Shown here piece by piece: positions 11,657-58,020 of a stretch of 64,000 nt of DNA. Source of the DNA: Schmidtea polychroa (taxonomy: Eukaryota); NCBI GenBank assembly GCA_044892525.1, contig CM097886.1, positions 45,012,001 to 45,076,000 of the forward strand, given 5' to 3'. The position numbers and the translations under genes were made by a program. How positions within the stretch are numbered: the stretch's first letter is position 1; every line of letters begins with the position of its first letter. Under the pieces are notes generated by a model. That model made no database searches, had not been told where the DNA came from, and saw only the letters and a program-made list of their open reading frames with translations.

Positions 11657-11710
11657 ATTAAAAAGGGTTAAGTGATGTAAATAAATGTATATAAAATGTG
11701 GTATATTAGT

Positions 11711-30800: not shown

Positions 30801-31132
30801 CTCTAAATCATAGACATCGATTAATCTTTTTATTATGAAAAAGGAATTTATTCATTATTTACTGTTTCTTTGGAAATTTTCGCATCATTTTTGGGTTTTC
30901 GTATTTAGGGTTTTCATACTTGTTAAATAAAACTAGAAGTCGAATTCAAATTATATTCAAAAATTATAACAATATCGGTTTGACTAAACAAATCATTAAA
31001 TTGACGATTAAGCATTTCTAAATAACAATAATAATTATGTACGCCATAATATAATACGAATATAATACTTTAATATATGTATATGTTAATTTCTTAATAG
31101 TAATAATTCAGATGTAATTTATTATTATAATA

Positions 31133-34100: not shown

Positions 34101-34378
34101 GAGCTATCTATTACATTCATTCTAGCCCCCGTATCCAATAGACAATGTTTGAAATAAATCCTATTAATCCCAACTATTACGCTTGGTCTTCCACCCATCT
34201 TATCATATACAATTTCTAAATCGTCATTTAAAACAGAAATATTATTTATATGTTTATCCAATGTTTCGTCATAAACAAACCTTTTACTGCTATTTATTAA
34301 TTTTGCCTCACAAATACTTATTATCTTCTTACAATTCTGATCACATTTATTTTCAATTACATTAATTTTATCACGCAT
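31133..34378 (-). CDS. pol: Pol of the nested Gypsy (PR-RT-RH-IN); ORF runs through the PPT into the 3' LTR
   Basis: LDTGA, YLDD, LDTDAS, HKILCH..CELC, IDFCGP, VDCG, GLIERQFR, RGPF. Confidence 0.95.
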   Translation of the reverse strand: MRDKINVIENKCDQNCKKIISICEAKLINSSKRFVYDETLDKHINNISVLNDDLEIVYDKMGGRPSVIVGINRIYFKHCLLDTGARMNVIDSSIIKEIGEIDIKPHNEGIWCANGSPLETFGNVKLKIQIGNKEENVIFVVVKKVSPSIIGGIDLLRQFNIKLMKINDSITENTEIENNFNEICNIEARFSNSYNDEKRFSRAIKLFDLKKGDKMYQIINENKEVFMADKWDIGKTDLLWHEIKTTEGPIYMNPRRQPAHLEEKIEEAIKNLEENGIIRKCDSSWNTPLVCVWKKEKNDIRLCLDFRNLNKITERQIFPMPNIEQMLDSLNGSKFFSTIDLGSAYYQVELTNNSQEKTAFSTRSGQYCFNRMPFGIAAAPATFQKLMNMVLGKLLWNTAIVYLDDILIFSTNKEEHFKRINEVLMKIKEAGLRVNPEKCIFLTNETKFLGHIINNEGVKVDENKIEAIKNFVRPQCLKQLRSFLGLCNYYRKFIKNYSMFSRILESICGTTNEKLIWSEKCEEAFEELKNALSKTPVLIYPNFQKEFILDTDASFDTIGAVLSQLDEQGHERVIAYGSHSMNKHEIGYCITRKELLAIYYFTQHFKHYLYGKKFKLRTDHKAITFMMATKKPITAQFQTWINFLSSLDMDISFRKGMEHTNADALSRDKCGRCTQCMEVHENPKTEKMKTRLLTMTAVKQGVIWQKGNVEIENQKELIMKNVKTKFKIDDDVIMTKENKIWIPKNNREKFIKEMHKILCHAGCKKVIDYIKVNYDMDELQMITTEIIQNCELCQKRKTLTTKTKETILKTEVSKPFETIAIDFCGPLKTSVHGKKYILGIIDMCTRYISLTAVSKQDEKTTADTIMKFWILKYGSPRIIQVDCGKTFESGVMKELAKTHNIMLQFSSPYHHSANGLIERQFRTIRDFMSTSIKDRLKSNWVEVLPEIEFALNATVQSTLGKSPAEIVFGFRITREWQNKKEVTNDRIRIIEEIQEKQRNVKYRNADRINREFKIDDNVLVKIDTRKKEDDRYRGPFRVIKKLHDRSYELMDKEGKTMIRNVEWLKPFKQGGCEEDLIISTI

Positions 34379-34680
34379 CTAATTACAATCATTAATATCA
34401 GTTTTATCTCTTACGTCATATATAATCTTACTGTTACTCTGATTATCTTCCTTTATTACATCATATTTTTTTAATTTACTTTTCACGTTTTTAATACTAT
34501 CTTCTAAAATTACATCTGATTTAAATCTAATATTTTTTACCTTTAAATTTGATTTAGATATACTGTCTAAATTATTATTACTACTTTTAAAATTATACAT
34601 ACTGTCTAAATTACTATTACTATTATTATTAAAAAATATACTATACTTATCTTGGCGCACACAATCATCATTATTACCTT

Positions 34681-35844
34681 TTAATGCATGGCTCCTATCA
34701 TCTCGCCTAATGATGGAGCCCTCCCATTTGGGTGTCCATCACTTCGGGTAGACTGAGAATCCTCCGCTTCGTTTCCGCGGTCTTCCATAGCTGCCACTCT
34801 TCCATCGGCATATCTGTCTTGATATCGTCTGTTATCCTCGTAATTTCTAGATTGGTTTCTTCCTGATGATCGTGTGTCTGCTGTTCCCCAACATTGAAAC
34901 CGCAAATGACCACGTTTTCCACATCCTGAGCATGAAATCGATGGACATTCTCCCCGGTGATGGCCAGATTCCTTACAAGCGTTGCATCTCAATTCTGAAT
35001 TTATCTTGTTATTTTTACATTCTCTAATCATGTGTCCTTCTTTTCCACATCCATAACACTTCTTTTTTGGGCATTCTCGACTCGAATGTCCTAGTTCTTG
35101 ACAATTCCAACATGTAACAACGCGACTTCCACTTGCTCTGTTGTCTCTATGGTAATACTGTTGATTAGTATTCCTTCCAGAATCGAAGCTTTGAGCGTGC
35201 GGAATAGAATTGAATCTTGGTTCAAAATTTCGTCTTTCTTGAACATTCGAAAAATTGCGTTGTCGATCTTGTATATCGGCAAATCCTTGTCGTTTCTTTA
35301 TTACGTTTGCGAACGTTTCTTTTCTTTGCATAACTGCAATACTAGAAACTTCAATGTTGATAGCATCAACTTTACGAATTACGTCCTTGATCTCTTCGAC
35401 TTTTAAAGCATCTCGCATCTTGATCTCTTTTTGGATTTCTTTGTCTTTGACACAATGTATCAAAAAATAAGCGACTAATTCGTTTTTATCCCACTTGTGT
35501 TTCAATACTTTGTCGACCATTTTCTCAATCTTTTCGAAAAACACTGGCGCTGCATCGTTATCTTTCTCATAATTGTATAAGTTCAGAAAATCGCCTATCA
35601 GTGTTGACGGCTTCTTGAAAGCTTCTCTGAGTCTATCTTCAAAATTAATAAATTTGACATCGACGGCTTCATAAATCGGTAAAATATCTCTTGAAATAAG
35701 GCATTTTATCATCATATTTTGGTTATCTTGATCTAACCCACATAACTGAAAATATCGCTTACATTCTTCAATGAAAGTTTCGATTTCGTGTCTTCCGTCG
35801 TAAACATCCGGAATCATCTTATTCACTATTGCCAGGGTCGCCAT
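34681..35844 (-). CDS. gag: Gag of the nested Gypsy with four CCHC zinc knuckles
   Basis: CWNC..GH..REC, CYGC..GH..REC, CNAC..GH..GEC, CSGC..GH..FQC. Confidence 0.95.
   Translation of the reverse strand: MATLAIVNKMIPDVYDGRHEIETFIEECKRYFQLCGLDQDNQNMMIKCLISRDILPIYEAVDVKFINFEDRLREAFKKPSTLIGDFLNLYNYEKDNDAAPVFFEKIEKMVDKVLKHKWDKNELVAYFLIHCVKDKEIQKEIKMRDALKVEEIKDVIRKVDAINIEVSSIAVMQRKETFANVIKKRQGFADIQDRQRNFSNVQERRNFEPRFNSIPHAQSFDSGRNTNQQYYHRDNRASGSRVVTCWNCQELGHSSRECPKKKCYGCGKEGHMIRECKNNKINSELRCNACKESGHHRGECPSISCSGCGKRGHLRFQCWGTADTRSSGRNQSRNYEDNRRYQDRYADGRVAAMEDRGNEAEDSQSTRSDGHPNGRAPSLGEMIGAMH
34690..34732 (-). promoter_or_regulatory. -1 ribosomal frameshift signal of the nested Gypsy
   Basis: Slippery C CCA AAT in the gag frame (34732-34726), 5-nt spacer, hairpin GGCTCC-ATCAT..ATGAT-A-GGAGCC; the -1 frame is open into 34379..34660. 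Confidence 0.75.
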
Positions 35845-36166
35845 GTTAAATAAAACTAGAAGTCGAATTCAAATTATATTCAAAAATTATAACAATATCG
35901 GTTTGACTAAACAAATCATTAAATTGACGATTAAGCATTTCTAAATAACAATAATAATTATGTACGCCATAATATAATACGAATATAATACTTTAATATA
36001 TGTATATGTTAATTTCTTAATAGTAATAATTCAGATGTAATTTATTATTATAATATTATATTGTGCTAATAATTAAATCTTCCTCACAATACTATTATTA
36101 TATAATATTTTATTGGTTATATACACCGATATATACAGATTATTATATACAACATTATTCGATTGG

Positions 36167-37555
36167 TTACTCCGTTCTACCCTTCTCCTCTTTCCTCACG
36201 GTCATCTTGATATACACCGTGTCATTTCTTGCCATATCTTCTACTTTTTGTTGTAGGATGAACGTAGGTGCTCCTGTTGCTGATCCTTCTTCTTCCGTAG
36301 GTCTCTGGTAACACATTTGGTTTCCAGTTGTCTTGAAGCTTTGTTCGTGGATGCTTCGGTCATTCATTAGTGCAATATCGATTTTTGCCTGGAACGGCCA
36401 CTCTATTATTTCGTCGTATTCCCCTTTACATAACAGAAAGAAAATCGAAAAGTGTGTATCTGATCCGGTTCCGTCCCCGTTGGGATATATCTTCATTTTC
36501 ATTTTGTACCCATTTTTCCAAGAATGGAATGCAGGGCTTGTTATTCTTGTCTCTTCTCCGGTTTTTGCTTTTCGTATTCTTTCTTTTACTCCCGTTATTT
36601 TCCATATGTAGGGTGCTGTTGGGGTTATCTCATTTAGATTTATTTCCCGTATTTTCTGATGTAGCTCCTTGGCCTGATTATTACTGATTTCTATTCGGTT
36701 TATTTGCATCTTTATGTTTGCTCGGGCTTCTTCGAACGCTTCCCTTTCTTCTAGTAGTTCTTTGACTAACGCTTTCAACGATGTTATCTCTATCTCCATT
36801 TTTTTTACTTTCTCTTCGCTTTCTTGTAACGCAGTCGACCACATTTCTGCGTGGGTTGAAACATTTTCTACTAAATGATGTGGTAACTCCCCTCGGTGTA
36901 GTAGTTTCTGACAACCCTATTTACCTAGTACACATGTCATTCTTTTCTTTTCACATTCCCTTAGATGCTGTGCCACCTTTATTATTTCCCCTTGGTTACA
37001 TCCGTTTGGGCATTCCCCACTGAACTCTGCACATACTCTCTCCTCTTGGACATTGTGATGTTTGAGGGTGAGATTTTTCCACGTATCTATTTCTCCACAA
37101 TGTTCACATCTTTCCAATCTCTCTTCACACTGCCTTTGATGCTCTTTTTCTTCGCTTGCTCGAATAGTTTTATGGCACCTTTCACACTGGCCGACTCTGT
37201 GCATACATTCTCCCATATGTTGTACTACCTTCCATATTACTCCTTTCCATTCGCATGGGGCATTTTTGCATCCCAGGTTGGTGTTTAACATGTCTTTCAC
37301 TGCGGCTTTATCCTCGTTAGTGTCTTCTAAACTCGATATTAGTGTCTCTTTACACACCGGGCACCACTGTGGTCTGTTCTTTATTACTTCACTGATACAT
37401 TCTTTACATACTCTGCATCCACATTGAGTTTGGTGAGGTTCCTTTAACAACTTTTCACATATTCCGCACATAACATGTTTGTGTATTCTGATCGTTGTAG
37501 ATTTTCGGACTTGCTCGACAATCTCTCTGAACTCTTCTCTTTGTCGTTTATCCAT
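36167..37555 (-). pseudogene. TRAF: TRAF homolog of copy B, one in-frame nonsense (TGG>TAG at 36917-36919)
   Basis: Near-identical to 8145..9533. Confidence 0.92.
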
Positions 37556-37640
37556 TCTATAATTATATATACATATAGTTCTTATCGATACAGGTTCGAT
37601 ATTTTATTTACAATTATTTACATTTTAAGCTAGGTTTGGT

Positions 37641-38160: not shown

Positions 38161-41100
38161 CTATATACGTGAGTTTGGAGGGCGCTGAGCGTTCCAGGCC
38201 TCCACCCACTGTTCTTGTTTGATATCACTTGGTCGTTTCACTCGATGTTGGAAATTTCTGATTCGGGTCATCTCTAGTTCTCCGCGATGTCGTTTATCTT
38301 TAATTATTTTTATTGTTCCCCCCGTTATGATTAGGAAGGCCCCTGTTATTATTATCCCACTGATCCACATCATCTGCTTCACGCTTATACTCTCTGGTTT
38401 TTCCTTGTTTGTTAATGTTACTATTGCTTCTGTACTTTTCTCGTTCCCTCTTTTGCCATTCCCTTTCATCATCTCTCGTATTCTTGCTATTTCCTCGTTC
38501 ATACCCTCCTTTGCCATCTTTTGTATTTTTTCCATCTCTTCCTCCGAAACATAGTTGTCCTGAGCTTCCTCGCCGGTTTTCTTGTGCTTTCCTCCTTCGT
38601 CCTTTTCGTCGTGGTTTTTTCTTTTCTTTCCTCTTTTCCCCGGGTATCGTCGGCATTCTCTTTTTGATTCGTTCCTCCAGATACAAACCGTGTATTCTTT
38701 CGGCGGCTGCTGCTGCGTCACATATTGATGGCATCTCTCACCTGGTCCTAATCTTGAAATACAGACTTTGTGCTCTTTTCTAGGTTGGAGCTGCGTTATT
38801 ACTACTTCACCACCTTTTCCTAGGTGTACCTCTTTTCCTTTAACGTTCGTTATTCTCTTCCCGTCTCGATTTCGGTATGCTTCTTGTATTCTTCTGTTAT
38901 TGGTTCTGTGTCCTCATTTATCAGTACTAGTTTCTGATACGCTCTAGACATGCATCTTCCTAGTATGCACCTTTCCTTTAAGTCCCATTCTTCCTTTAAA
39001 TCCCACTGCTGCTCTTGTGCTTGCTTTTTCTTTTCTTGTTTTAGTTCATCCTCTTTGCTATCTTGATTCTCCGCTTATTTGGTTTCTTTTATCGTTCTCG
39101 TCCCTCCATGAGCTGTTACTAACTCTATCATGGTAAGCATAATTATCATTAATATCATATTTGTCTCTATTTCTTTGTTAGTGAAAGGTAGGCATACCCT
39201 CTGTTTTCCATTATTCGGTTTTTCCTCCTCTTTGGTCTTGGTTCCCGGGCTGTTTCCCTCTCCTCTCGTACCTGAATCCTTGTTTTCCGGTTTATCCTCT
39301 TCTGGTCTCTTTCTATTCCATTCTTTAACTAACTCTCTCAATTGAATACGACGATGTTTCCCAATTCGTTGTTGCTCGTTCTGATTTTGCGTGAATTTTA
39401 GGTCTTCTCTATTTAATACTATTAAAATAATTTTTGGTGTCCCCCCTTTAGTTAATGTATTCTTTACCATCGCGTTTTCTCCGTTTTCGTAGAATTCGTT
39501 TACATTTATCGCATATTTATTATTTTGTGGTACTCTCCATGTTAATAATAATTTCATTGCTTCTAGATTTTTCCGTACCGTATTCCATTGAAATTGAGAT
39601 GTGTTTTTGCACATATTTTCAACTTCTTCTTTTGTCGCATTTTTGCAAATAAATCTGATCATTTCCAAGTTTGGCTGTATGGTTGCCCAGTCCAATGTGG
39701 AGTTCCCTTCGTTTGATTTGTCGTCTAGTCTCGATCCTGATTGATGTAGGATGTGGAGTGTTTTTGGGTGTATTTTCGTTATAGCTGCATACATCATGGC
39801 GGTTTCGCCTTGTTCATTTTTCGTGTTGGTTTCCTCGCCCATCTCCCCAAGGATTCTCATGATCGTTATTGCTCTATTCTCTTTTGCAGCTAGTATTGCT
39901 TGTTGTAGAGGTGTTCTGGAATCCTTTGTTACCATCGTAAATGCTCGAGGCAAGGTTTTGATTTTCCCGATATCTAAACCCGTGGTTTGATCTCTTGCGT
40001 ATGTGTGTACGGCTTTTATTATTTTTGACAATATTATTTCGTCTGACAGCTCTAGCATTTCCTCGAAGAATACTTCTTTTGCTTTGCGTATTATTGCCTC
40101 TTGATCTATACTCATTGATTTGGTTTTGATGACGTTGTTTGTGACCGTTTGGTTCGTTGTCGACTTTGGTTCCCTTGATTTCCCATACCTTATTTTCGTT
40201 TTCTTTCCGTTTGGATTATTGATTCGTTCCTCTGCTGTAAGTATTTGGATAATATCCAGGTAATTCTCGCGGATGTTGTTCATTGTATCCATCGTGTATA
40301 ACACACTTACCGTTTCCCAATATTTATTTCGTACTTGGTTAGTAAATTGGAATATTGATTTTTCGAATGCGCCTATTCGCTTTTTTAATAACTGTTCATC
40401 TTTATGATTTGTGAATTTTATCCCTCGTTCTAGTAATTGATTCGGGATTTCGAATAAATGATGTCCTTTCATAGCTTCTCTCATCAGCGTGTTCTCTCCT
40501 CTCGTGAACGCTTCGTTTACGTTGATCATATAATCATTTTTAATTGGATTTCTCCATGTAATTAATATTCCGGTAATTGTTGTCAGTTTTTCTTTGATCG
40601 CTGTTAACAATCCATCGTACATGTTTCCGACTTCTCGATTGTCCTCATATGATAGTAGTTCCATCAATGACGTGAACGCCTCGGTACTTTTCCCTTCGAT
40701 AGCATGATGTAGTGCATTTTTCCGCTCGTGGTCTTGTGTAGTTATTTTTGATCCAGTATCAAGTAATGCGGTTATAATGTCTTTGGTTTTGCCTCTGTTT
40801 GCTGCTATCATTAATGGTGTGTAACCTTGGTTGTTTTCTTGTTCTGTTGATCGCTTGCAGTCGTGAAATGCTTCTATTGTTTCTAGTATTTGCTCGTTGT
40901 TACCTACTTTCATGAGTTTGTGTAATGGTGTGTCTCCATAATGATCTGTTATTGTAAATAATATTGGCCATTGACTTTTAACTACTCGCAATAACGGATG
41001 TGTCCTCTCTCTGTTCGCATAATTTTCGATCATCGTCAATAATCCTCCTAATATTTCGAAATCTAATCGATCTTTTGCCCATCCAAGTAATTTTATCTTT

Positions 41101-44068
41101 ACCTCTCGTACGATTTTTTCCGCTTCCGATGGTTGTATGCCCAATTTCTGTTTCATTCTTGCTAACGTCTTTTTCGATGACATATGTCCTCCCAATCTCC
41201 CATCGTGATATTGCGTTAGTAACTCTTTTCGTCGGTTTTCCGGTATACACATTAATCGTTTTTCCCCATCCATTATCAGCAACCAATCTTTCTCTATAAT
41301 ATATCGGTGTCGGTGTTTATCCATATGTTCTTTTAATTTTTGGTCTTTCGCATATACCTCCGTCTTTCCGGTTTTTACATAATCGATAATCCGTTTCAGT
41401 TCTACGTCTTCTTGTTGGTCCTTTCGCAATTGACAGAAATCCAAATCTTCCGCTACTATTAAGCATATGCGTTGCATTTCTGAATCCACCAAATCTGGAA
41501 AAATAAATCTTGACATACAATCGGCGTTGGCATTTGCTCTTCCCGCTTTGAATTTTATAAATGGGGAGTATTCTTGCAATTGCATGGCCCATCTCATCAG
41601 TCTACTGGACGCTTCTTTATGTTGCCCTAACCACACTAATGGTTGATGATCTGTGGTTATGCATATGTCATGTCCCCATAGTAAATATCGGAAGTGTTTG
41701 ATAGCTTGTATTATAGCCAATGCTTCTCGTTCTGTTACCGAATAGTTCTTTTCGTGCTTTTTGAATGTTCGACTGTAATACCCGATTACTCTCTCTCTTT
41801 TCCTTCATCGTCTAATTGTCCCAGAATCGCGCCTGCCGCGTACCCGCTTGCATCCGTTGCCAATAGAAATGGCTTCTTAAAATCTGGGTGTACGAGGATA
41901 GGTGCTTTGATTAGTTTATCTCTCAGCGTTTCAAACGCCTCTTGTTGTTCCTTCCCCCAAATGAACGAAATGTCCTTCTTTACTAATTCCTGGATTGGTT
42001 TTGCAATTCCTGCATAATTTTTGATAAATTTGCGATAGTATCCGCATAATCCTAGAAATTCCTGAACTTGGGTGACAGTTTTCGGTGCTGGACATGTTTT
42101 TATTTTCTCAATGTTTCTTGGGTCTGGCTCCTTTCCTTTAGCTGACACTATGTGTCCTAAAAACGTGACTTTTTCCTTTGCCCAATCGCATTTTGAAGGT
42201 TTGAGCTTGAGTTTCCATTGTCTTAATCTAATAAATACATTTCGGATATCCTCCAGATGTTGTTCGAATGTCGCTGAATAGATTAGCAAATCATCAATAT
42301 ATACCATACATTGTTTGATTCCATGAGTGACGAAGTTCATACACCTTTGAAATGATGCTGGTGCGTTGGTCAGTCCGAATGGCATTTTTCTGAACTGATA
42401 TAGATCTCGTCCCAGCGTGAAAGCTGTTTTCTCTTTGTCCTCATCTTTGACTTTAATCTGCCAGTATCCACTTTTTAGATCTAAAGAAGTAAAATATGCT
42501 GCCCCTTGCAACATCAATAACATCTTATTGATGTCCGGCAATGGATAGGTATCTCTCTTGGTTACTGCGTTTAACTTCCGATAATCGATACAGAATCGAT
42601 GCGAGCCGTCTTTCTTTTTTACCATGACCACTGGGAATTGCCAAGGTGAGCAACTCGGTTCGATTACTTTTGCGTCTAGCATCTTTTGTACTTCTGCTTC
42701 GGCTATTTCTTTTTGCATTTCTGCTAGCTTGTATGGTCTTAATGCAATTGGAGTTTCATCTATGAGGGGTATTGCATGTAGGGTAACATCGCATGTACCC
42801 AAATCTAAATCTGAGATGGCGAATATATCTTTATATTCTACCAACAATCGGTGCAATTTTTTCTTTTCATCATTCGTCAACAACATACTATCTATTGTCC
42901 ATAATTCATCATCTTTGATCATCTCGTTGGTCACTTTCGGTAATTCTATGTCCATCAATGGGGTCAATCTTCCCAATTTTTCGTTCTCATAAATGATTTT
43001 GTCTTCCTCTTCGAAATTCGTGATGTTGAGCGGTATCACTCCTTCTTGGTTTATTGTGACTATTTCTCTTGCGAGGGGTAATTCTCGTCGCTTTTCGAAT
43101 GATTTGCTTGGTTCAAAGATAACTTCTCCTTCCATACCCGTATCCACCTTTATCTGACAAATCATCTGCGATTTTGCTGGTACTATTATTTTTTCTGGAC
43201 ATCTGATTACTGCATTCATTTTGCATATTCTACCGGCTTTGTCTTTTAGACACATGGTTGTTAAGTCAATTACGACTTCTTTTAATAATTCTGGCATCAG
43301 GTCCGTTCCGATTATGCATGGTACGCTAAGTTTTGGTATTACTGCCAAATACGTTTCAATTTCGTTGTCCTGGTATCTCAATGTAGTCCACCATCTTCCG
43401 ACCACGTCTACTGTTTCTTTACTACATGCTATGATGTGAATTGTTGTTGATTCGATATCTTTCCAGTGCTTACTGGGGATTTGATTAATCGCTATCGCTG
43501 ATACATTAGCTCCTGTGTCTATCATAGCATTGGTTTCTTTACCATTGATTTGAATCATGACTGTTACTGCTGGACCTACAGGTAAACTCATCGCTGCTAT
43601 TGTTCTTACGTCATCTGCTTGATCTACACTTTTGGTACGTCGTGTTGGCATATAATGCATACCGGGTTGACTCGTTAATTGCGGATACATGTTTTGTGTC
43701 ATGGTCAAAGCTGCTTGTGGTCCCACGATATCTGGCGGTATATAGCTTCCATTGGCGATCCAGGTATTTGTCTTTTCCTTTTCCCAATATGGTGCCGTTT
43801 CCATTGGTTTTTCGTTTGGGTTTCTGTTTGGATATAGACATTTATCGTTCCCGTTATCATCGTCGTCACTATCGCTGTTAGATGATTGGCTTCTAAATCG
43901 GTCCAAAAATTTTTGCTTATTCTTTTTCAATTGTCGTCTTGTTGCTTCGTCGTACATTACTTTCCGGAATCGTCTGCCTACTTCCTCGTCGGTTCCTTTA
44001 ATCTTTGTTAGTATTTTGATCAATCGCTTTATCCGATGGATGTCTTTTGAGTGACCATGTAATACCAT
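38161..44068 (-). pseudogene. pol: Pol-ankyrin-membrane-module part of the copy B polyprotein, decayed
   Basis: GA slippage at ~41790; in-frame 1,074-bp deletion of the integrase core (equals A 3296-4369); 186-bp deletion (A 6212-6397); GAA>TAA at 39075; indels near 38900. Confidence 0.92.
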
Positions 44069-45951
44069 GTTTTTGCTAAAAATGGTAAAAAGCCTACTAT
44101 CATTTTCCAGTTAACTTTCTTTTCCCGCTTGTATATATCAAAACAAGCTAACATTTGTGTTAGTATTACTCTGACTATCTGAATTATGAGTATGATCCCT
44201 AATATCCCGGCCATCATTTGTCCAAAAACTAAGAATCTTCCCCCCATTGCTTTCATCATGTTTGACGTGGCTTGTTGAAAATGATCTGGCGATAATAGCA
44301 GTTCGTAATTCGGGCCTGATTGATAATTTGTTCCCCCAGTTATTGTAACCATATTTGACAAAATGGATTCTCGTCTGGCTGGGAAGAGTACGTTAAGTCG
44401 TGCTGTTTCTAGATCTTCTGGGGAATACATACCACCGTTTGACACGTCTATAGGTTTGAAATCCAGCTCTGTGGCGAGTTCTATTAATCCAAATTTCTTG
44501 GGCTCCTCGGATATGGTTTTTCCCGGTAACATCATCCATTTCCCATCGGGTCTTTCATACAAAGGTCCGTATGCATTAGAACAGTTAAAGAGATTTGGGT
44601 AGAAACCCACTGGATTCATAATTCTCGTGACTGGTTGGACGAATCGATTTTGTCCTTTATAACGGATTTCTAATTCATTTGCACATCTCTTTTCGGGTAG
44701 TATGGATTTTTCTGGCATTCGTGCATACGTCTTGGTACACTGGTATGTGTACATCACTTCTCCTACCATTCTACCAAAATGTCCGTCTGGTAGTGGGAGT
44801 GAGGGCATCGTGTTATCTGGGTGCGTTATCGCAATAGCTAGCTTTGTTTTCAATATTTCTTTATTCAATGAACAATCGTTTTGTATCAGATCGTAATATA
44901 CTTTTTGCAAGGTCGTTTGTCCGCGATGAAATAGAAAATCCATTTTATTATTTGCATATAAGTATAGTTTTACGTCCTCCGTTGCTATCTTTCCCACTGC
45001 TCTATCGATTATTTGTCTCGACATATAGATACCTGCGTAATTGGTTTTATATACTATACTGTCACATTTGGTGGTTTCTTTCTCTTTGATAAATCTCATA
45101 CCTAGATCTGGATCGTCTGTGATTAATGCTGTTGGTGTCTTCTGCGTTGAAAGTCTCTTTTCTCTGGGAGATGGTGGCATTGGTTTTCCATTTCGCATTC
45201 TCACTCTGTCGTTTCCATCCTCGTCGTTCTCGTTCTCATAAATTTCTCCTTTTACTTCATTGAACAAAGCACCTTTTAACAGTTGGAGTCGGCATTTTTG
45301 GGTATTAGCTTCATAGATTATAGTTGATACTCCTGTCCTGCATACGTTTTCTGTAGCTCTACACGCTGGGTTGGTCTTCATTTGGTAATTATTTGCGTCA
45401 AATTGCGCTTCGTATTCCTTTAGTTCAACCGTATAGGACTCGATTACTACTACTCCCGATATTACCTCGCCTCGGATCGTATACGTACCTCCGTTACATG
45501 ACCCATCTGATGATTTTACTTTTCCGGATACGTAAACACTTTCGGTTTTAATCATTCCAGTTTGTCCGTGAATCGTCACCCCGTTATGCATTTTTAGCGC
45601 TCCGGTTCTAAATAGCTCTTTACAGTCCTCTCGTTGTATTGATACGATTTCTTTATCCAGACCGGGTAGTATAAGAGTCGAATACGAATATTGTCCACAG
45701 TAATATGCGAGTACCTTTTTTGATACTACGCATTCCCTTGCTTGCGTTCTGATGAAATCTGATTCTTGATATACATGGTAAGTAACTTTTGTTCTTACTA
45801 TGTCTAATTTGTTGGGTGATGCTTGTCTGCATTCTTCTATGTCTCTCAATGAGTATTTATCTCTCATTATCATATTATCACAATCGTAGATGGTAAAACC
45901 CGTTGCTCCACTTGTGCACAACATCCATATCATCATAGTCATCATTAACGA
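44029..45951 (-). CDS. env: Envelope glycoprotein, chuvirus-G-like (class III fusion family), with internal signal peptide, furin site and C-terminal TM
   Basis: Signal SLMMTMMIWMLCTSGATG/FTIYDC; motifs YYCGQYS, DGSCNGGTY, YLYANNKMDFL, GEVMYTYQC, FVQPVTRI, GGMYS..L..AR..VLFP, FG..AGILGI match my recollection of chuvirus-type glycoproteins; REKR at 45154-45165. Confidence 0.82.
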   Translation of the reverse strand, partial: SLMMTMMIWMLCTSGATGFTIYDCDNMIMRDKYSLRDIEECRQASPNKLDIVRTKVTYHVYQESDFIRTQARECVVSKKVLAYYCGQYSYSTLILPGLDKEIVSIQREDCKELFRTGALKMHNGVTIHGQTGMIKTESVYVSGKVKSSDGSCNGGTYTIRGEVISGVVVIESYTVELKEYEAQFDANNYQMKTNPACRATENVCRTGVSTIIYEANTQKCRLQLLKGALFNEVKGEIYENENDEDGNDRVRMRNGKPMPPSPREKRLSTQKTPTALITDDPDLGMRFIKEKETTKCDSIVYKTNYAGIYMSRQIIDRAVGKIATEDVKLYLYANNKMDFLFHRGQTTLQKVYYDLIQNDCSLNKEILKTKLAIAITHPDNTMPSLPLPDGHFGRMVGEVMYTYQCTKTYARMPEKSILPEKRCANELEIRYKGQNRFVQPVTRIMNPVGFYPNLFNCSNAYGPLYERPDGKWMMLPGKTISEEPKKFGLIELATELDFKPIDVSNGGMYSPEDLETARLNVLFPARRESILSNMVTITGGTNYQSGPNYELLLSPDHFQQATSNMMKAMGGRFLVFGQMMAGILGIILIIQIVRVILTQMLACFDIYKREKKVNWKMIVGFLPFLAKTWYYMVTQKTSIG

Positions 45952-46069
45952 ATTTATTGATGCTTTTCTGCTTGCGGGATCTTTCATCGGTAGTTCCCAT
46001 TCTAGTTCATTTAACAGCTTTTTCAATCTAACTTGCATCGATCTTTCTTGCTCATTTTTTCGTGGCGCT

Positions 46070-46518
46070 TGTATCAGTCTTTTCCATCCTCCGGCACGAA
46101 TAATATGTGGTTCAATAGTATTCTCTATGATTGAAACGGTCATTTCCACATGATTTGCAAACTGTTTATTTGGTATTTTCCTCGCAGCCAGTCCCATCAA
46201 ATTATACATCAAATACGTGATTACCACTAGATGATGTTCGTCATCATTTGCATTTGTCGTGAGCTGTTCAATCACTCTCTTCGTTTCATCCCAATCCGTT
46301 TTGGTGGTTTTCGTTTTCTCTTTGATTAACTTTGGGATTATCCCCGAAACGATGTGCCATAATTGTCTAGCTTCCGTACTGGCTACTTTCCGTTGCCACA
46401 AACGTCTAAGTTGTGGGTTTGTTATTATTAACATATCTTTGATCAATTCTCGTATCCATTTTTCTCCTCTTTCGATCGTTGGTTGGGCTTCCTTTAGATC
46501 CCATACTATTTTATCCAA
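46070..46518 (-). CDS. Bcl-2-like helical domain (degenerate BH1, recognisable BH2) immediately before the Env signal peptide
   Basis: VIEQL..helix..IENTIEPHIIRAGGWKRL parallels VVEELF..NWGR..LNRHLHTWIQDNGGWDAF. Confidence 0.5.
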
Positions 46519-46779
46519 TTTTTATAATCGGACTTGCCCTTGTTCTTGCTTTAATTGTTCTTTGGTTTTGAACTCAGACTTTTCTCCTTGTTTCTTAGGT
46601 CTTCCTTTTGCCCGTTTTTCCATCATCGTTCCGGCTTCTCTGGTATTTTCGTAATTCGGATTTCTTTCGTTATCCGTTCTGGGTAATGAGCTATCGTTAT
46701 TTCTTAGCCACTCATTCCATTCATCTATTATTTTATCGGTTTGACCTTCTGGTGTTACTTTCGTTGGTTCTCTTTGCTT

Positions 46780-49227
46780 CTAGAATTGTTCATCCGTTTC
46801 GGTTTCCGTAGTATTGTCGATGATTTCTTTGATGTTTAGTTTCGTTGGTTGTTGATAACTTGTTGATGGCTGGTTATTAGTCCACATTTCGGCTCCTGTC
46901 GGCCATCTTACTAATAGCGGTGATCTTTCTCCTGGTTCATCGTCACTATCTTCGAGGATAATCTCTTCAACTTCTTCAGTTTCATTAGATTTACTTGGTG
47001 CTTTGTTCGGACTTGGAGTACTCAAACTGCCTTTTGTTGGTTTAGTAATTTTACTTTTCCTTTTTAACGGTTTCCCCAACGTTTCTGCCATCGTTAATAC
47101 ATTTGTCTCTTCCAATCTCATGGGTGTTATTCCGACGTCTGCATTATCGTCTAGTGATTTTCCTTGCAGTTGTAGATGGAAAGGAGTTTCGTATGCCAAT
47201 TTCTTTTTTAATTCCCTGATTTTGGTGGTTGGGTGTACTTCTACTTCCTCAACATTCTTATCTGGGTATTTGATTCGGATTCGGTATCTCTCTTGGGTAT
47301 CTTGTGACCACTCATGGTTTCGCCACTTCCCGATAATTTGCTCCAGTTGTTCCGGGTACCATTCGTTGTATTGTCGGTATTCTTCTATAGTTTTTACTAT
47401 CTCTCTCAGATAATGGATATTATCCGATATTTTTAAAATGAAGTTAGCTAATGTTATTACTTGTCGTTTTTGATTTTTCGCTCCCTTTATTAGGATATCG
47501 CCTAATTGCTTATATCTTTCTCTCTCTTCTCGTTCTCTTGCTTCCGTCGCTTCCTCGCCGTCCATATCAGCATATTCACGTTCCTTTTTCCTCATTGCAT
47601 GAATATGTCTTGCTTCATTTTCGCTTTCTGATGTGACATCCGTCTCGCCTTCGTCATCTGATGTCTGTTCCCTTGCTTCCTCTTCATATTCTGGAGGTTC
47701 CTCTTCTTCTTCCTCCGATTCACTTTCTGTCTCACCAATGTCTGTTTCTACGAAGATTCCTTTCCGGATTTCCCATTCCTTATTTTCTGCATTCCACACT
47801 CTTTCCCATGGGGTTCGTCTGCAGGATCTGGTACTTAGTTTCGTGATTTTTCCTTGTAGTTCTTTTTCTTTTAACCATTGTTGGTGGATTTCAATTATTT
47901 CTGTAGATTTTTGATATAACGTTTTCATCCGGTCTCGTATTTCTTTTTGATAGGTTACATCTCTTGTTCGAAATTCATCCATTGGTACTATCCTGATTAT
48001 CTGATGATTGTCCCACATACCCATTTCGCTTAACGAGGTGTCGTCTTCCGCTCGTAATATTATTTTATCGTACATCATGACTACATCATCCACCATACCA
48101 TCACTACTTTCGCTACGTACCTTTTCCGTTATCTCTTGGTTTATCTTTGATACCAAGTCATCCACTGTACTCTGATTGCTCATTTTTATTCGTCGTTTTT
48201 CTTCGTTCGGTAACCATATGGTTATTTCCAACCTCTGTGGCTGGGTTTCTTTTAACCTTCCATATTTGTGGATCAAATTTATGGTTCTCCAATCACTCAT
48301 CCGGAGCATTTCTGTATCTCGCAATCGGCTCATTAGTTCGTACATGGCTGGGGCTCGTCTGGTGATGAGTAAATCCCAGTTGTCTTCTACTTGTTCTTGA
48401 ATTTGTTTGATCAGCTTATCCAGGTTTCGTCTCAGAGTACATTGTTTTATTTGTTCTAATTTCAATTTGATATTAAAATCATATTCTGCCTTGGCATCTT
48501 TAGCCCAATCGTAAAGGTTGGCTGGTTGTTTTTCTTTATGCAACTTCACTATTTGCGTTTCTCCTGGCCATATTAGTGCATCTACTAAGTGCATATCTGG
48601 TTTGATCTGTTCTCCTTGGTATTGATACAGATATTCTTTCTTTCTCGAACTTCCCAAATGTTCTCGTATCCAATCGAAAAGTTCGTCGGTGACTGTACTT
48701 TTGATCCACATTCTTTCAAGTCCTCTGCTCGTTCTGATTTTTATTACATACCGCGTGGTATCGGCCTGCTTCATTTTTTCCATATACTTTTTTATAATTG
48801 ATTTTTCCTCGTTTGGTATTAAATCTTTCTCGTTTCCTTCCAATTTCATCACTTTTTGTACGAATCGCCTGAATGGTATTACATCGATGAACTCTTGGTT
48901 TCTCACTACCACCGGGAGTATTTCGGCTACCTGTTTTATCGCTTCCTCCCTTGCTTTTCTCAACTTTATTTCGATATCCTCGTCTTCACTTCCACTGGTT
49001 ATCTCGCTTTCGCTTTCTTCCTCTTTGATTTCCCCTTTCGGAGGTTCGCTTATTTCGTTTAGCTGTAGTATTTCTCCACCCAAACTGCTCACATAGTCTT
49101 CGTCTGAGGACGACGTACCTTTTGTCCTTTTCATCATGTTGATTCGCAAATTTCTCATCCTAGGTACTCTCTTTAGTTTTCTATTTTCGAATATCGTTGT
49201 TTCTTCTGATTCCGATTCTTGTAGCAT
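46780..49227 (-). CDS. Polyprotein segment between Gag and Env with three ubiquitin-like domains and acidic linkers
   Basis: UBL-like units at ~48540-48750, ~47985-48232 and ~47090-47287 (e.g. IRIKYPDKNVEEVEVHPTTKIRELKKKL..LQLQGKSLDD); same frame as env across stops at 46780 and 46522. Confidence 0.65.
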   Translation of the reverse strand: MLQESESEETTIFENRKLKRVPRMRNLRINMMKRTKGTSSSDEDYVSSLGGEILQLNEISEPPKGEIKEEESESEITSGSEDEDIEIKLRKAREEAIKQVAEILPVVVRNQEFIDVIPFRRFVQKVMKLEGNEKDLIPNEEKSIIKKYMEKMKQADTTRYVIKIRTSRGLERMWIKSTVTDELFDWIREHLGSSRKKEYLYQYQGEQIKPDMHLVDALIWPGETQIVKLHKEKQPANLYDWAKDAKAEYDFNIKLKLEQIKQCTLRRNLDKLIKQIQEQVEDNWDLLITRRAPAMYELMSRLRDTEMLRMSDWRTINLIHKYGRLKETQPQRLEITIWLPNEEKRRIKMSNQSTVDDLVSKINQEITEKVRSESSDGMVDDVVMMYDKIILRAEDDTSLSEMGMWDNHQIIRIVPMDEFRTRDVTYQKEIRDRMKTLYQKSTEIIEIHQQWLKEKELQGKITKLSTRSCRRTPWERVWNAENKEWEIRKGIFVETDIGETESESEEEEEEPPEYEEEAREQTSDDEGETDVTSESENEARHIHAMRKKEREYADMDGEEATEAREREERERYKQLGDILIKGAKNQKRQVITLANFILKISDNIHYLREIVKTIEEYRQYNEWYPEQLEQIIGKWRNHEWSQDTQERYRIRIKYPDKNVEEVEVHPTTKIRELKKKLAYETPFHLQLQGKSLDDNADVGITPMRLEETNVLTMAETLGKPLKRKSKITKPTKGSLSTPSPNKAPSKSNETEEVEEIILEDSDDEPGERSPLLVRWPTGAEMWTNNQPSTSYQQPTKLNIKEIIDNTTETETDEQF

Positions 49228-49315
49228 TTGGTGGTTTAACTGACTGATTTGCTCCTTGTTTTGGTTGTTTCCCTCTTTTATTCTTATTTCCGTTTCTTCA
49301 TGTTTCTTTTCTATT

Positions 49316-50740
49316 TTATCTTTTATCTTTTTCCAGAATATTTTCTGAATTCTCTGGTTTCCTTTTAAAATCGTGGTTGAATTCTGTTTTCATTTCCGTT
49401 GTTGTTTCTTTTACCTTTTCTGGTTCCGTCATGGGTACTACCCTTGGGTTTTTCCCGTAATTGTAGCAATACTGGCTTTTCAGGTCTTTTACTAACTTCA
49501 TCATATTTATTCGCAATGGTTGTTCTTGGCGTTGTTGGTTGCGTTCTTGTTTTATCCTCTCTTCCTCGGCCTGCAGTCTTTGCCATTCTTGTACATGTTG
49601 ATGTACTTCATAATTGTTGAGATTTTCGGTACTCCTCATCATACGTATATTCTGGGTTTGTTGTGGTGCTGATTCTGGTCTTGGTCTCATCATTTGTTGC
49701 ATCATCTGTTTCATCTGCGAGATTTCCTGCATAACGTTCATTTGGTTTCCTTCGCTAGGGTTACTTTGTCGTTGCGGATTCGCCATATAATTATTATTTC
49801 GCTGTGGTGGTCGTTGTTGTTGACCCCTTTCTCGGCAATCTCTGGAGATGTGACCTGGCTGACCACAGTTAAAACAACCTCGCAATTGGCATACATTTTC
49901 GGTATGTCCACGCCGTCCGCAACGATTACAATTTGAATTTCTATAGCAATCTCTGTCCCAGTGTCCTGATTTACCGCATGTTCGGCACTGCTTGTTATCG
50001 TTCATATTTCGTCAATTATTAAAATTGTTCTCATTATTCAGGTTGTTACGATTACCATTATTCCCATTTGATCGTCCTTGTGGTGGTTTAAAAATTTGAT
50101 GCGCTCCTGGTATGAATTGATTCATTTTTGGTTCCTGGTTGTTATTATCTCCATTATCCGTTTTTACTTTGGCTGTCGCTATCCTCCCATCCTCTTGCAT
50201 GATGTTCATTTGTGCTGGGAGGTGGAGTTCGCACCTCGTAGCCCAATCTATGGCCTCTTCTAACGTTGTACACATCTGACAGCCTACAGATGCTCTTACT
50301 TCTTCTCGGCGTAATCCCTCTATGAAATAACCGATCAAATTTTCTTCTGGTAATTTCCCATTCATTGCTTTCTTTGCCAATCTCCGCAATTCGCTGGCAT
50401 ATAACGTAATGGATTCATTTGCTCTTTGTTTCCTATTTGCTAGTTCGCCGAGTGCTTGATTTATTGGTTTGCTAGCTCCGAAAGTTTTCTTCAGGAATGT
50501 TTTGATATCGTCCCATTTATCTAATTTCGTATTTCTTTCTTTAGCCTCTAAATATACTTCTAATGCGCTATCGCACAAAAACAACGGCATCCTTTTACTA
50601 ACTGCTTCGGATGTCCATCCGCACACATCGATATAAACTTCGAAGTTGGTTATGAACGTTGCTAACTTGTTTGCATTTCCGTTGAACGGTTCTCCTCTGA
50701 ACTTCTCTTTGTACTCGTCGGTTTTTACGACATTCGTCAT
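49316..50740 (-). CDS. gag: Gag of the giant element: capsid-like domain (50012..50740) plus three CCHC knuckles (49316..50005), split by one in-frame TGA
   Basis: EPFNGN..FITNFEVY..GW, ELANRKQRANESI..YASELRRLA, FIEGL; CRTC..GH..RDC, CNRC..GH..NVC, CFNC..GH..RDC; a 7-bp GATAAAA duplication at ~49315-49328 breaks the frame to the next segment. Confidence 0.9.
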
Positions 50741-52116
50741 GATTGGTGTTCTAGATTCGTCTGTTTCTTTTAAATTGTCTAACGATGTGACTAAACTTTG
50801 GGCTGATAATTCCTCGGTTGACGTTGCTAAACTATTAGTGATGTCGGACAGACTTTCTCTGCTTCGAGATCGACTAGGGGTGTATCCGAGATTTTCTTGG
50901 TCAAATATAGGTACTTGATTGGTTCTTCTTGATCCTTGTGATATTCCTCTTTGATGTTTAATAGATCGTCCTCTTTTGAGTTGTTGTAATTCGTCTCCTG
51001 AAAATAATACGTCTCCTGGCTTACTTGAAGATCTAAAATTGGGTTTATCCGTGATTCCTTTCTTACGCTTCTTGGTAATTAGCGGCTACTGAATTGGACG
51101 AGTTCGGTTCTGATTGTGTTTCCTTCGATAAGTATTCTGTATGAATCTGCGACTGTGATTCTGAGGAGATTTACTAGTCCTTGACAGATGGCTGCTAATA
51201 CTATGAGATTGAATATATCGGTGATTCGTTCGAAGTTGGAGATGTCGCTATCTGTATCTTCTTCCGTCCTGGAGTCTTCCGGTTGCTGGGTTTCTCGGTG
51301 CGGGTTCTGAATGGATTTGTTCTTGGTCGATTGTCGATTTTTTCGAATTCCTTTTGTGCAGGTTCTGGATTGGCTTGATTGGCTGACTTGATTTGATATC
51401 TAAAATGAAAAAATGATCTCGTGTTGCATTTGCTTACACGACTTCATCATTCTTTCAACAACATTCGAACACAGACACCTTTTAGGTTTCTGTTTGTGCT
51501 TCCCTTATTTTTTTTTTTTTTTTGCAATTACCTCCGCGGGTTATAATTTTCCATCAGCCCGTATTTTTCGTCGATTTTAAATTATCTATATGGGGTAGTA
51601 ACAATCATCTATAAAGTCGTAATAATTATCTATTCGTTATCAATTATAATATAAATAGGTCGTTGTCGGTCTCTGCTTATTACCCCCCTTCGTTTTCCTA
51701 TTCCTTTTGCGCGGTTGTCGCTGTTTTACTTTTCGTATTTACTATTATCTCACTCGGTTCTACTCTAGAACCAATAAAATATATTTTCCCGCTTCACCCA
51801 AAAAAATATTATTCCGTAGAGTTTCTCTGCTTCACTGGGGTCCCTTTAATTAGTTAGTTACTTTCCTCTTCTACTCGTTATCGTCATTTCACCTATTCTT
51901 TATTTTCCATTATCTTTTAATTCATTTCCTTCTTCCCTTTCCTTTTCCGTTATAATCTTATTATCTTTTCCACGAGCTCGTTTATTTCCTCTCTAAACTC
52001 AAATTTTCGTAATTACCTTCTATTTTTTCTAGCTAGCTTTAATATTCCATTTCACTAGTAATTTAAATATTATCTCATTGTAGCTTAACTGCTATCTCTC
52101 GCTTTTCTAGGCCTTT

Positions 52117-52869: not shown

Positions 52870-53412
52870 TCATTCACCATAATAAACCATATGGGCTTCC
52901 TTTATTTCATATTTGCACAACGTGCATCTTTTTAAGTCTTTTACACATTCCTCACAGTGACTGAGGTGTCCACAAGGCAAGAATAGTACGCGGATAGGAC
53001 GAAGTTTACACGCAAGACAAGTTCGTAGTAGGGTCAGTTTTTCTTGTATTTTTCGCTCGATTGTATCTGATATTGTATTTAATGGATCTTTTATACGTTG
53101 ATAATCAAGATTTAATGTTGGGTGGTTCAATCTCTCTTGATACCACTGATACACGGTTTCAGGGTTTATCTTCCCATCTGGGTGACTTAGTCCTGTGGCT
53201 AATAACATGTGGTTGGGGACGACTGGTGTTTGTCCGATTGCTTGGAGTAGTATGATGTTAATTCTTTCTCTCTTTTGTCTCAGTGTTTTAAGGGAGTCAT
53301 TCTCGAGGTTTATGAAGTTGATTAATTGTTGTATCTGGTCCACGAATTCTGTCATGTCTATTAGAAAAAAAAAATGTTTTAGTAATATATTACTAATTAG
53401 TGGTGGCTTCAT
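52870..53412 (-). CDS. RING-HC E3 ligase-like protein with IAP/MDM2-type C-terminal RING, no BIR (likely start MTEF at 53355)
   Basis: CLAC-x11-CGH-x3-CEEC-x6-CTLC, VLFLPCGH, RING at the extreme C-terminus; lies inside the element, 3' of the PBS. Confidence 0.85.
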   Translation of the reverse strand: MKPPLISNILLKHFFFLIDMTEFVDQIQQLINFINLENDSLKTLRQKRERINIILLQAIGQTPVVPNHMLLATGLSHPDGKINPETVYQWYQERLNHPTLNLDYQRIKDPLNTISDTIERKIQEKLTLLRTCLACKLRPIRVLFLPCGHLSHCEECVKDLKRCTLCKYEIKEAHMVYYGE

Positions 53413-53644
53413 TACACTTTCCCCTTTTAAGTTATTATTAATTATTTTACTTTCCTCTTAGTTCCCTTCTATTATTAGTTTTGCTTTATTTATTTTTAAT
53501 TTTATCATTATCTAGGTTCCCATTTCCCTCTACTCTGTTTATACTATTATTCAATAAACGCCATTCAATTTGCATTCGTCAAATCAATCAAATTCAAAAA
53601 AAAATCCTGGTGAATCTCACGTTATTCAATCAAAATTTCAATCT

Positions 53645-54803: not shown

Positions 54804-55426
54804 AAGTTTATATTTTGCAAAATTTTGACAGAAGTATACTTTATTTCGATTTTTATTTAACTAGTTGAAATGTGATTTTGCTTGAATAATGATGACAACT
54901 AAAATAAACAATAGGGTTTAATATTGTTGGGGTTACACCTCGGCTGACTACTCTACCATATTGTTTGGTCTAAGGGTTGATTGTCCATCTCGAATAAAAT
55001 GTGCCGCCGCTTTGTCAACCTGGAGTGAAACCCTACATAACTTTCTTCCAGCATAGTGCCCGTGAATTACTTCACGTTGGTACTGCACTATGCCGGCGAG
55101 ACGCCAGCAAGCAGGTGAGCTTCTGCCTTAAAACTACTCCTTGCTGAGGCCTCGACTTCCCATTCCTGACTGCCGATAGAAGGGCTTACGTCCATTTCAT
55201 TACACCACCGGTTGCCAGAATTCTACGAGAATAAATCGGGGATTATTCGTTAACTCTCGAAGACGCTATATTCAACTTATTTAATTAAAATCTGACAGTT
55301 TATAAACGGAAGTAAGTAAACGACGAAATTTATTAGTATTCAATATTAATACACAAGGAGTTAATCGTACACATCACGAGTGTTCGTGGAGAAAAAGAAA
55401 TGTCACAATAAATGCGATACGACTTC

Positions 55427-57889: not shown

Positions 57890-58020
57890 GTCGCACCTTC
57901 AGCGATTGGACCCGTGAAGAAGCCTTCACATTTCGGCCCAATCTAGCTGCGTGATTGAAATACTCCATGTCCACCGGCTGAGCTCCCGAAGGCACCTCAT
58001 ACCATGACATGGAGTATCTC
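57890..58020 (-). ncRNA. Conserved structured RNA element, solo-LTR copy
   Basis: Perfect 12-bp stem ATACTCCATGTC/GACATGGAGTAT, CC-UUCG-GG loop, second hairpin GATTGGGCC..GTGAAG-GCTT-CTTCAC..GGTCCAATC. Confidence 0.6.

Follow-up and report, generated by a model that had tools for sequence, protein, structure and literature searches.

The 64,000-nucleotide stretch of Schmidtea polychroa DNA analysed here (the window) contains what is most probably the envelope (Env) domain of a Ty3/Gypsy element that is young, of Burro type and 30 kb in length; this domain is encoded in frame within one giant polyprotein, is predicted to adopt a class III fold and is likely to carry the element's particles between cells. 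The assignment to the Burro type is made by layout: elements of this type measure about 30 kb and have a single polyprotein of about 4,700-5,100 aa with Env between a BCL2-like domain and the protease (PR), and the element here agrees with this, its BCL2-like domain being suggestive only. Burro/GYPSM1 elements are planarian LTR retrotransposons, giant and Gypsy-like (Jurka 2007 and Grohme 2018, summarised in Arkhipova & Yushenova 2019, PMC6431247). That 2019 paper already placed an Env in frame between their BCL2 and protease domains and reported that the env region matches fusion glycoproteins of mononegaviruses (PMC6431247). The two share a length of about 30 kb with LTRs, a giant polyprotein (4,873 aa in Burro, a 4,732-codon frame here) and Gag, CCHC knuckles, putative Ubi/SUMO-like and BCL2-like parts, Env, PR-RT-RH-IN, ankyrin and MATH/TRAF domains. 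They differ in the place of MATH, which here belongs to a TRAF-like ORF of its own after the polyprotein; the S. mediterranea element has it within ORF1, and the D. tigrina element in an ORF further upstream. Moreover, the frames scanned here gave no Pfam match to BIR or dUTPase. The Burro Env was likened in 2019 to the gypsy (F-like) Env (PMC6431247), whereas the model obtained here is class III. In S. mediterranea, BURRO1 is released from repression when PIWI is knocked down (PMC8532177).

In the window copy (minus strand, as are all coordinates below unless stated) Env belongs to a frame of 830 codons from stop to stop (44029-46521) that comprises a putative Bcl-2-like domain, an internal signal-like segment, the class III ectodomain and a transmembrane segment (TM). 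No stop interrupts the ectodomain, as the sequence-only reading had noted, and the frame starts 190 codons further 5' than the 45951 given there, the added part being the Bcl-2-like domain and linkers. That reading had taken env for a stand-alone ORF. It looks like one because the window copy is broken: an in-frame stop (46522..46524) lies upstream of the Bcl-2-like domain, whereas in 24 of 27 gap-free sister copies the frame stays open for 224 codons ahead of the signal segment, and a frameshift at approximately 44069..44074 splits Env from pol at a place across which 27/27 gap-free sister copies are open. Broken in several places, this copy is unlikely to be able to make Env or Pol, and its 830 codons are a fragment of a single polyprotein. 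In the sister copies Env is instead an internal domain, in frame inside a Gag-Ubl-Bcl2-Env-PR-RT-RH-IN-ankyrin polyprotein of ~4,700 aa; the frame around it has 4,732 codons in 44 of 77 scored copies and at least 2,900 in 74 of 77. The family numbers at least 104 copies, and all four full-length copies checked (29.8-30.2 kb) have TG...CA LTR pairs that are 99.9-100% identical and 4-bp target duplications. The family is very young and recently amplified.

Ahead of Env, Gag capsid and CCHC knuckles (49316..51085; Pfam and ORF reading) occupy two frames split by a stop at 50012-50014, followed by a part of the polyprotein with weak ubiquitin/SUMO-like matches (46780..49389; Rad60-SLD E 0.0011, below cut-off) and by the Bcl-2-like helical domain (46063..46449, residues about 25-153). 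The latter is suggestive only: its Pfam Bcl-2 match is below cut-off (E 0.09/0.055), homologue P0009 gives E 0.00096, and structure comparison (VIA) of a model with mean pLDDT 54 has BHRF1 as its best match (Z 7.7, below 8; rmsd 4.6; 129 aligned), Bcl-2 proteins making up most of the longest structural alignments listed for this low-confidence model. After Env, Pfam places protease, reverse transcriptase and the start of RNase H at 41786..44110, and the remaining RNase H, an integrase zinc finger and ankyrin repeats follow at 39075..41804, although this copy has lost the integrase core through a deletion with its break near 41144. The PR-RT-RH-IN order, the Ty3-type Gag, RH and IN profiles and the TG...CA LTRs with target duplication identify a Ty3/Gypsy element with Env preceding PR-RT-RH; both the Gypsy host and the position upstream of pol had been correctly recognised from the sequence. 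A Bel/Pao host was rejected, the matches listed for the frames scanned including no Bel/Pao marker such as DUF5641. Neither a domesticated host gene nor a free endogenous chuvirus fragment fits, since Env sits in a multi-copy LTR element and in frame with pol.

Profile searches agree with the earlier assignment to a chuvirus-type rather than a baculovirus-F-like family. Pfam PF24664 (Monjiviricetes fusion glycoprotein) matches Env with E 2.4e-70 (237.7 bits, the family cut-off being 27), phmmer finds named chuvirus glycoproteins (Tacheng tick virus 4, E 1.5e-35; Wufeng shrew chuvirus 6, E 1.3e-30), and no F-type (baculovirus-F-like) Pfam profile was found in the window frames at E up to 0.1. 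Against the PDB, a single-sequence search found nothing (best E 1.6) and a profile search only weak herpesvirus gB matches (best E 0.05). The predicted ectodomain model (pLDDT 88) has a gB/G-like fold with a beta-rich fusion domain nested in the chain. Its central helix of 48 residues (model residues 311-358; 44824..44967) is the kind of element that forms the trimer core of class III proteins. Every one of the 38 PDB matches listed by Foldseek is a herpesvirus gB (best E 2.8e-13), with TM only 0.36-0.45 and rmsd of at least 9 Å; one prefusion gB is listed, at TM 0.26, and the model is closer to the postfusion structures. The overall class III fold, as predicted, is common to both, whereas identity to gB is 8-11% and no gH/gL-like partner is known here. 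In BFVD, G proteins of chu-like and related viruses rank first (E 1e-34, TM reaching 0.69), with xinmo-, qin- and nyavirus G proteins also present and 9 of 50 rows without a name. The structure comparison places Env with gB and chuvirus-type G proteins, so that the class III fold first suggested from the sequence is now also predicted from the model; a class I or II fusogen, including a baculovirus-F-like errantivirus Env, was rejected on these model matches and the lack of an F-type Pfam match. The closest predicted structures are G proteins of Jingchuvirales/Monjiviricetes (Tacheng tick virus 4, Wenling crustacean virus 14; TM 0.64-0.69), which have the same Pfam family and the same 14 cysteines but differ in being stand-alone viral genes with about 20-27% identity and a much shorter loop at the place where Env holds REKR.

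The ectodomain (44227..45897; gB-like, Monjiviricetes-type by Pfam, alignment and predicted model) is preceded by an internal signal-peptide-like hydrophobic segment (45898..45957) with small residues at its end, where cleavage may occur, and a conserved YDC motif right after, and is followed by a transmembrane anchor (44152..44223, hydropathy). The signal segment was judged by hydropathy, where its peak is modest (1.49), and by alignment; in the alignment the same arrangement ahead of YDC/FDC is present in 11/11 retroelement-type relatives printed and in 2/2 stand-alone G proteins. An N-terminal signal, a lumenal ectodomain and a single C-terminal TM, as read from hydropathy and alignment only, would fit class III fusion proteins. 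All motifs listed in the sequence-only reading were located in the frame (830-aa numbering: YYCG 273, DGSCNGGTY 339, REKR 453-456, YANNK 522, GEVMYTYQC 587, FVQPVTRI 627, GGMYS 696, FGQMMAGILGI 766), the pattern FG..AG.LGI being one residue short as written there. The frame has one N-glycosylation sequon, N646, and all 14 ectodomain cysteines are conserved in 93-100% of covering rows of a 116-sequence alignment.

The acidic/Pro/basic loop (45142..45240; low confidence, model pLDDT about 62, and alignment) had been described as a furin loop. Its REKR (45154-45165) fits R-X-K/R-R in an exposed loop and is carried by 30/30 family copies, but the conservation among relatives that would be expected of furin-primed envelopes is absent: R-X-K/R-R occurs at this position in 0/19 close relatives covering the loop and 1/90 distant ones, and the minimal R-X-X-R in 3/19 close relatives. 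By eye, REKR is also missing from all six published S. mediterranea rows (PMC13524379), and furin sites are not always conserved in gB-type Env (PMC13524379). Because it is fixed in the family yet missing from close relatives, REKR is only a candidate furin site, specific to this element family.

If Env is a particle-borne fusogen, its production could proceed as follows. The Gag, Ubl and Bcl-2-like part would be translated in the cytoplasm, after which the hydrophobic segment before YDC would act as an internal signal sequence and thread the ectodomain into the ER lumen, its N-terminus being freed by signal peptidase. The TM would halt transfer and bring the chain back to the cytoplasmic side, where PR-RT-RH-IN would be made; the cytoplasmic parts would then be cut by the element's protease, and Env would trimerise and enter particles as they bud. 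The exposed REKR loop may be nicked by furin, although fusion is probably independent of nicking because relatives lack the motif. We offer only tentatively a bolder extension, a currently active enveloped class III flatworm 'retrovirus' in which one chain threaded through the membrane would yield Gag, Env and Pol in equal numbers. The tail anchor of the Bcl-2-like domain, tethering Gag, and the signal peptide of Env would be the same hydrophobic segment; a second membrane protein at the end of the chain, a segment with no Pfam match above noise and no Atlas match, would be the attachment partner; and furin priming would be newly gained in the family. Such retroelements could perhaps be a reservoir or donor of the fusogen and not only recipients, a possibility for which the deep split from chuvirus G leaves room.

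Among family copies Env has a pN/pS of about 0.02-0.05, indicating strong purifying selection. For this estimate loci were picked by a 24-nt DNA word, giving 30 copies, of which two were excluded for 1-bp gaps and one for a rearrangement. Shared variants in the 27 gap-free copies are 77 synonymous and 5 non-synonymous (pN/pS 0.018), counts that are not fully independent because the copies are related by descent; these loci replace an earlier count of 80 synonymous to 2 non-synonymous, which was biased because loci had been ranked by protein identity. The two halves of the ectodomain have pN/pS of 0.047 and 0.022, against 0.11-0.14 in three of four flanking stretches of the same chain and 0.048 in the short Bcl2-signal linker. 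Such constraint, as read from coding variants, shows that Env matters to the element, which does not in itself demonstrate a role as an entry fusogen. Env could be kept for an intracellular job, such as anchoring Gag/Pol to membranes, ER budding or fusing neighbouring cells, rather than for infection through free particles: whatever the role of the ectodomain, the polyprotein would be held to a membrane on both sides of it by the signal segment and TM, and gB-type fusogens need a trigger, none being known for such elements (PMC13524379). We consider this unlikely, since the most constrained part tested is the whole lumenal ectodomain, not the anchors alone, and retroelements and viruses have the 14 cysteines in common.

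It is quite unlikely, too, that a Gypsy element captured a chuvirus glycoprotein independently and fairly recently and carries it as an env gene of its own. Among named viral proteins, the two chuvirus glycoproteins found by phmmer are indeed nearest. However, the sister-copy frames show that Env is not a separate gene, its identity is about 20-27% to viral G as compared with 26-42% to Env-Pol polyproteins, and the BFVD matches extend beyond chuviruses. In an Env tree (FastTree, midpoint root, 89 rows including two named chuviruses; 8/97 rows dropped for coverage <75%: P0011, P0016, P0020-P0024, P0059), all nine Env-then-Pol chains and the query form a 16-row clade (SH-like 99), and both named chuviruses fall outside it, on the other side of the tree. 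The single Bel/Pao-type copy in the tree (P0074, DUF5641-bearing, with the glycoprotein after an integrase-side domain) lies deep on the virus-like side and not with the query, which would suit an independent capture and upholds, for this one copy, the separation from Bel/Pao-borne glycoproteins. Because Env groups with other Env-Pol polyproteins and stands away from both the chuviruses and the Bel/Pao copy, recent capture is unlikely, and the association of gB-type Env with such elements has been argued to be ancient (PMC13524379). A chuvirus as the specific source, as first proposed, is not borne out by a deep clade of its own, the low identity to viral G and a tree without a true root. Mosquito Bel/Pao elements (Anakin) reportedly carry a chuvirus-like glycoprotein (Dezordi et al. 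2020); the same glycoprotein family thus sits there on an LTR retrotransposon of another superfamily than the Gypsy element here. That Env might be a passenger, open only because a stop or frameshift there would cut off pol, is extremely improbable: its in-frame position would shield it from nonsense changes, but the missense constraint (120 synonymous and 14 non-synonymous distinct variants in the ectodomain), with pN/pS lower than in most flanking parts, goes unexplained and largely refutes it.

The capture is neither new nor surprising, as the in-frame layout is in print for Burro (PMC6431247) and the Env type for HSV/gB-type GAG-ENV-POL 'errantiviruses' of Platyhelminthes, published in 2026 (Chary & Hayashi, PMC13524379), a paper whose main text does not contain the words 'polyprotein', 'ankyrin' or 'Burro'. 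Smed_errantivirus_5 (PMC13524379) has a Ty3/Gypsy pol, a gB-type Env before pol and the same cysteine pattern, and Env matches its domain I-II row (supplement file 3) at 102 of 187 ungapped positions (55%, hand count). The nearest of the six S. mediterranea elements has about 55% Env identity by eye, and the family here is distinct. As a discovery our result adds little; as material it is useful. More than 100 near-identical copies and an Env pN/pS in the range given above are good indirect evidence that a gB-type Env still works for these elements, whose mode of cell entry is stated to be unknown (PMC13524379), and a young, constrained family makes that question testable in the host through Env cleavage products and particles.

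The window holds further parts of the family. A complete 3.95-kb LTR (TG...CA; 54925..58873), flanked on both sides by ATAT, contains a 299-codon ORF; an accessory RING-finger ORF (52870..53457, Pfam) lies between LTR and gag, and a partial LTR, its first ~728 bp, is at the element's 3' end (27250..27977). The accessory TRAF-like gene (RING, coiled coil, MATH; 36167..37603) has an in-frame stop in this copy and 478 unbroken codons in the second copy of the family (1..13973, plus strand), whose stop-free frame 2-7102 covers the Env C-terminus, TM, PR, RT, RH, IN and ankyrin. An unrelated 5.2-kb Gypsy element with identical 245-bp LTRs and no env match is nested at 30921..36088. A word-indexed protein search, whose length range is too short for fused forms, gave only two relatives; among 16 long or fused phmmer matches scanned (P0005-P0014, P0017-P0020, P0023, P0041), ten have a protease or pol domain after Env, and one of these ten is the short chain of P0041.

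The glycoprotein lies in a minus-strand frame (44029-46521) that runs for 830 codons from stop to stop with no internal stop, and the motifs on which a sequence-only reading had based its call of a chuvirus-like class III fusion protein are located at residues 273, 339, 522, 587, 627, 696 and 766. The frame matches the Pfam profile Monjiviricetes_fusion (E 2.4e-70), and among 1.84 billion representatives searched there were 1,013 matches at E ≤ 0.001; of 20 that were looked up, most are nameless, and two that bear virus names are glycoproteins, one from Tacheng tick virus 4 and one from Wufeng shrew chuvirus 6. Each of the 14 cysteines of the ectodomain is conserved in 93-100% of aligned rows. 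The ectodomain model, computed from 97 sequences (mean pLDDT 88.3, pTM 0.69), is rich in beta structure in its N-terminal half and includes a helix of 48 residues. All 38 PDB rows listed for it by Foldseek are herpesvirus gB, the top one with E 2.8e-13, TM 0.43 and rmsd 11.9 Å; prefusion HCMV gB gave a TM of 0.26. In BFVD the top rows (best E 1e-34, TM up to 0.69) are G proteins of Monjiviricetes type, among them chu-like, qin-related and xinmovirus ones. Since the listed PDB rows are all gB and the top BFVD rows of Monjiviricetes type, the ectodomain has viral glycoprotein matches and falls outside the class I and II fusogens, so the original call withstands this comparison. The Env feature is real and its fold was correctly named, in a system that is already known; the glycoprotein family extends beyond chuviruses.

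The host is, as claimed, a Ty3/Gypsy element, with gag and PR-RT-RH around the Env frame, but the supposed novelty of a Gypsy capture upstream of pol does not survive the published record in PMC6431247 and PMC13524379. The first describes Burro (Arkhipova & Yushenova 2019), with the same layout, as the first example of an env lying in frame between gag and pol, with env matching mononegavirus fusion proteins and with Ubi/SUMO, BCL2, ankyrin and MATH domains. The second (Chary & Hayashi 2026) reports that Gypsy elements with a gB-type Env occur across animals and that in Nematoda, Bryozoa and Platyhelminthes the order is GAG-ENV-POL, and it describes six elements of S. mediterranea as well as a chuvirus-like Bel/Pao glycoprotein adjoining Gypsy pol; by hand count, its Smed_errantivirus_5, a gB-type GAG-ENV-POL element, equals the window Env at 102 of 187 positions. 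Such resemblances to planarian elements suggest that the host animal is a planarian too. The older view underlying the claim is that of PMC10084718, whose account of arthropods gives no clear Gypsy capture. Knockdown of smedwi-2 de-represses BURRO1 (PMC8532177).

Independence of the capture was upheld in part. In a FastTree phylogeny of 89 rows (8 others left out for low coverage), the query falls within a 16-row clade (support 99) containing all nine Env-then-Pol chains, and both named chuviruses, a beetle-genome copy and a DUF5641-bearing Bel/Pao-type copy lie on the opposite side. This agrees with an Env lineage distinct from that of the mosquito Bel/Pao capture, but because the tree is midpoint-rooted and 75 rows are unlabelled, it shows neither a recent capture nor the direction of one.

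In the window element, Pfam matches follow the order gag, CCHC knuckles, a weakly ubiquitin-like region, the Env frame, PR-RT-RH, an integrase zinc finger, ankyrin repeats and a TRAF-like accessory gene. The second copy (1-13973, plus strand) holds the Env C-terminus, TM, PR, RT, RH, IN and ankyrin in a single frame, and its 5' part, beside the window, is stop-free from the Ubl-side region through a Bcl-2-like domain and on into Env. Genome-wide, 77 copies scored among 2,784 candidates are all 99-100% identical; a 4,732-codon frame, which by arithmetic on the window pieces would extend from gag to the C-terminal membrane segment, holds Env in 44 of them, and in 74 the frame is no shorter than 2,900 codons. 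An env 24-nt word occurs 104 times (control 0), with env unbroken in 26 of the first 30 places. Among gap-free copies, the 187 codons 3' of the TM are open in 27 of 27 and the 224 codons upstream in 24 of 27. The window copy has stops at 46522-46524 and, in gag, 50012-50014, frameshifts near 46780, 44070 and 41790, and no integrase core; set against these open sister copies, it is thus a damaged member. In all four full-length copies checked (29.8-30.2 kb), the TG...CA LTRs measure 3.8-4.2 kb and are 99.9-100% identical, and there are 4-bp target duplications, so insertion was very recent.

The window copy is also rearranged (26840-58873, minus strand). A full LTR (54925-58873, minus strand) has ATAT at both flanks, and about 1.1 kb past it come the last 176 bp of an LTR, the internal region and the first ~728 bp of an LTR, and a 411-bp direct repeat (53850-54260 = 26840-27250) lies on either side of this unit. 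These pieces are ~99% identical to the full LTR, other family LTRs being 72-82% alike; LTR-LTR excision and local reinsertion of the circle may have produced this arrangement.

In the signal-to-TM stretch of copies picked by DNA word, 77 of the shared variants are synonymous and 5 non-synonymous (pN/pS 0.018), and of the private ones 58 are synonymous and 11 non-synonymous, with one stop (0.052); these counts are descriptive, as the copies have common descent. By region, the ratio is 0.047 and 0.022 in the two halves of the ectodomain, 0.048 in the short linker preceding the signal, 0.13 in the Bcl-2-like domain, and 0.11 and 0.14 in the outer linkers. Judged by these variants, Env is clearly not a passenger.

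The proposed furin loop was borne out only as a candidate. REKR (residues 453-456) sits in a weakly modelled loop (pLDDT about 62) some 60 residues N-terminal of the central helix; some herpesvirus gB proteins are cleaved at a similar place. It is kept in all 30 family copies, with 6 synonymous and 0 non-synonymous loop variants (small numbers), but R-X-K/R-R is missing there from all 19 close relatives and occurs in 1 of 90 distant ones in the alignment. By eye, the six S. mediterranea rows in PMC13524379 have none at this position. REKR is thus a candidate lineage-specific furin site.

An internal hydrophobic segment with a small-residue end precedes the YDC motif in the window family and in all 11 retroelement-type relatives printed, and a TM follows the ectodomain. 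Acting as a signal, the segment would bring the ectodomain into the ER, where signal peptidase would free it and the TM would stop transfer; the protease would process the cytoplasmic parts of the polyprotein, Env would form trimers, and particles would bud and enter other cells. Weak Bcl-2-like character is seen in the 190 residues preceding the signal. Because Bcl-2 proteins end in a C-terminal tail anchor, we hypothesize by analogy that the signal segment could also tether the Gag half to membrane. A narrow literature search found neither this shared signal/tail-anchor idea nor a selection test on this Env. After the ankyrin repeats, a possible second surface protein (6545-7534, plus strand; broken counterpart near 38161-39150, minus strand) consists of a further signal-like segment, a domain that contains cysteines, and a TM, and has no Pfam or Atlas match.

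The element carries a full TRAF-like accessory gene (RING, coiled coil, MATH), seen at 8097-9533 (plus strand) and 36167-37603 (minus strand), as well as a RING ORF at 52870-53457 and several coiled-coil ORFs belonging to no known family. An ORF of about 300 codons inside the LTR (55427-56326, minus strand), with no family match above noise, is also open in a diverged LTR variant (L011, 2-706; 68% DNA identity). LTR subfamilies (L012-L020 against the window LTRs) are 20-30% apart, whereas Env differs at ~2 of 558 residues, which suggests that LTRs are swapped or turn over fast inside one family. A nested, young 5.2-kb Gypsy element (30921-36088, minus strand) has two LTRs of 245 bp that are identical, and its gag and pol frames are open, the pol frame without an env match. 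Several relatives (P0005-P0008) have two aspartyl-protease-like stretches C-terminal of Env, and the window family one. Another homologue (P0010, HBK71150.1), an Env-PR-RT-RH-IN polyprotein, is catalogued as a Flavobacteriaceae MAG protein, probably through eukaryotic contamination.
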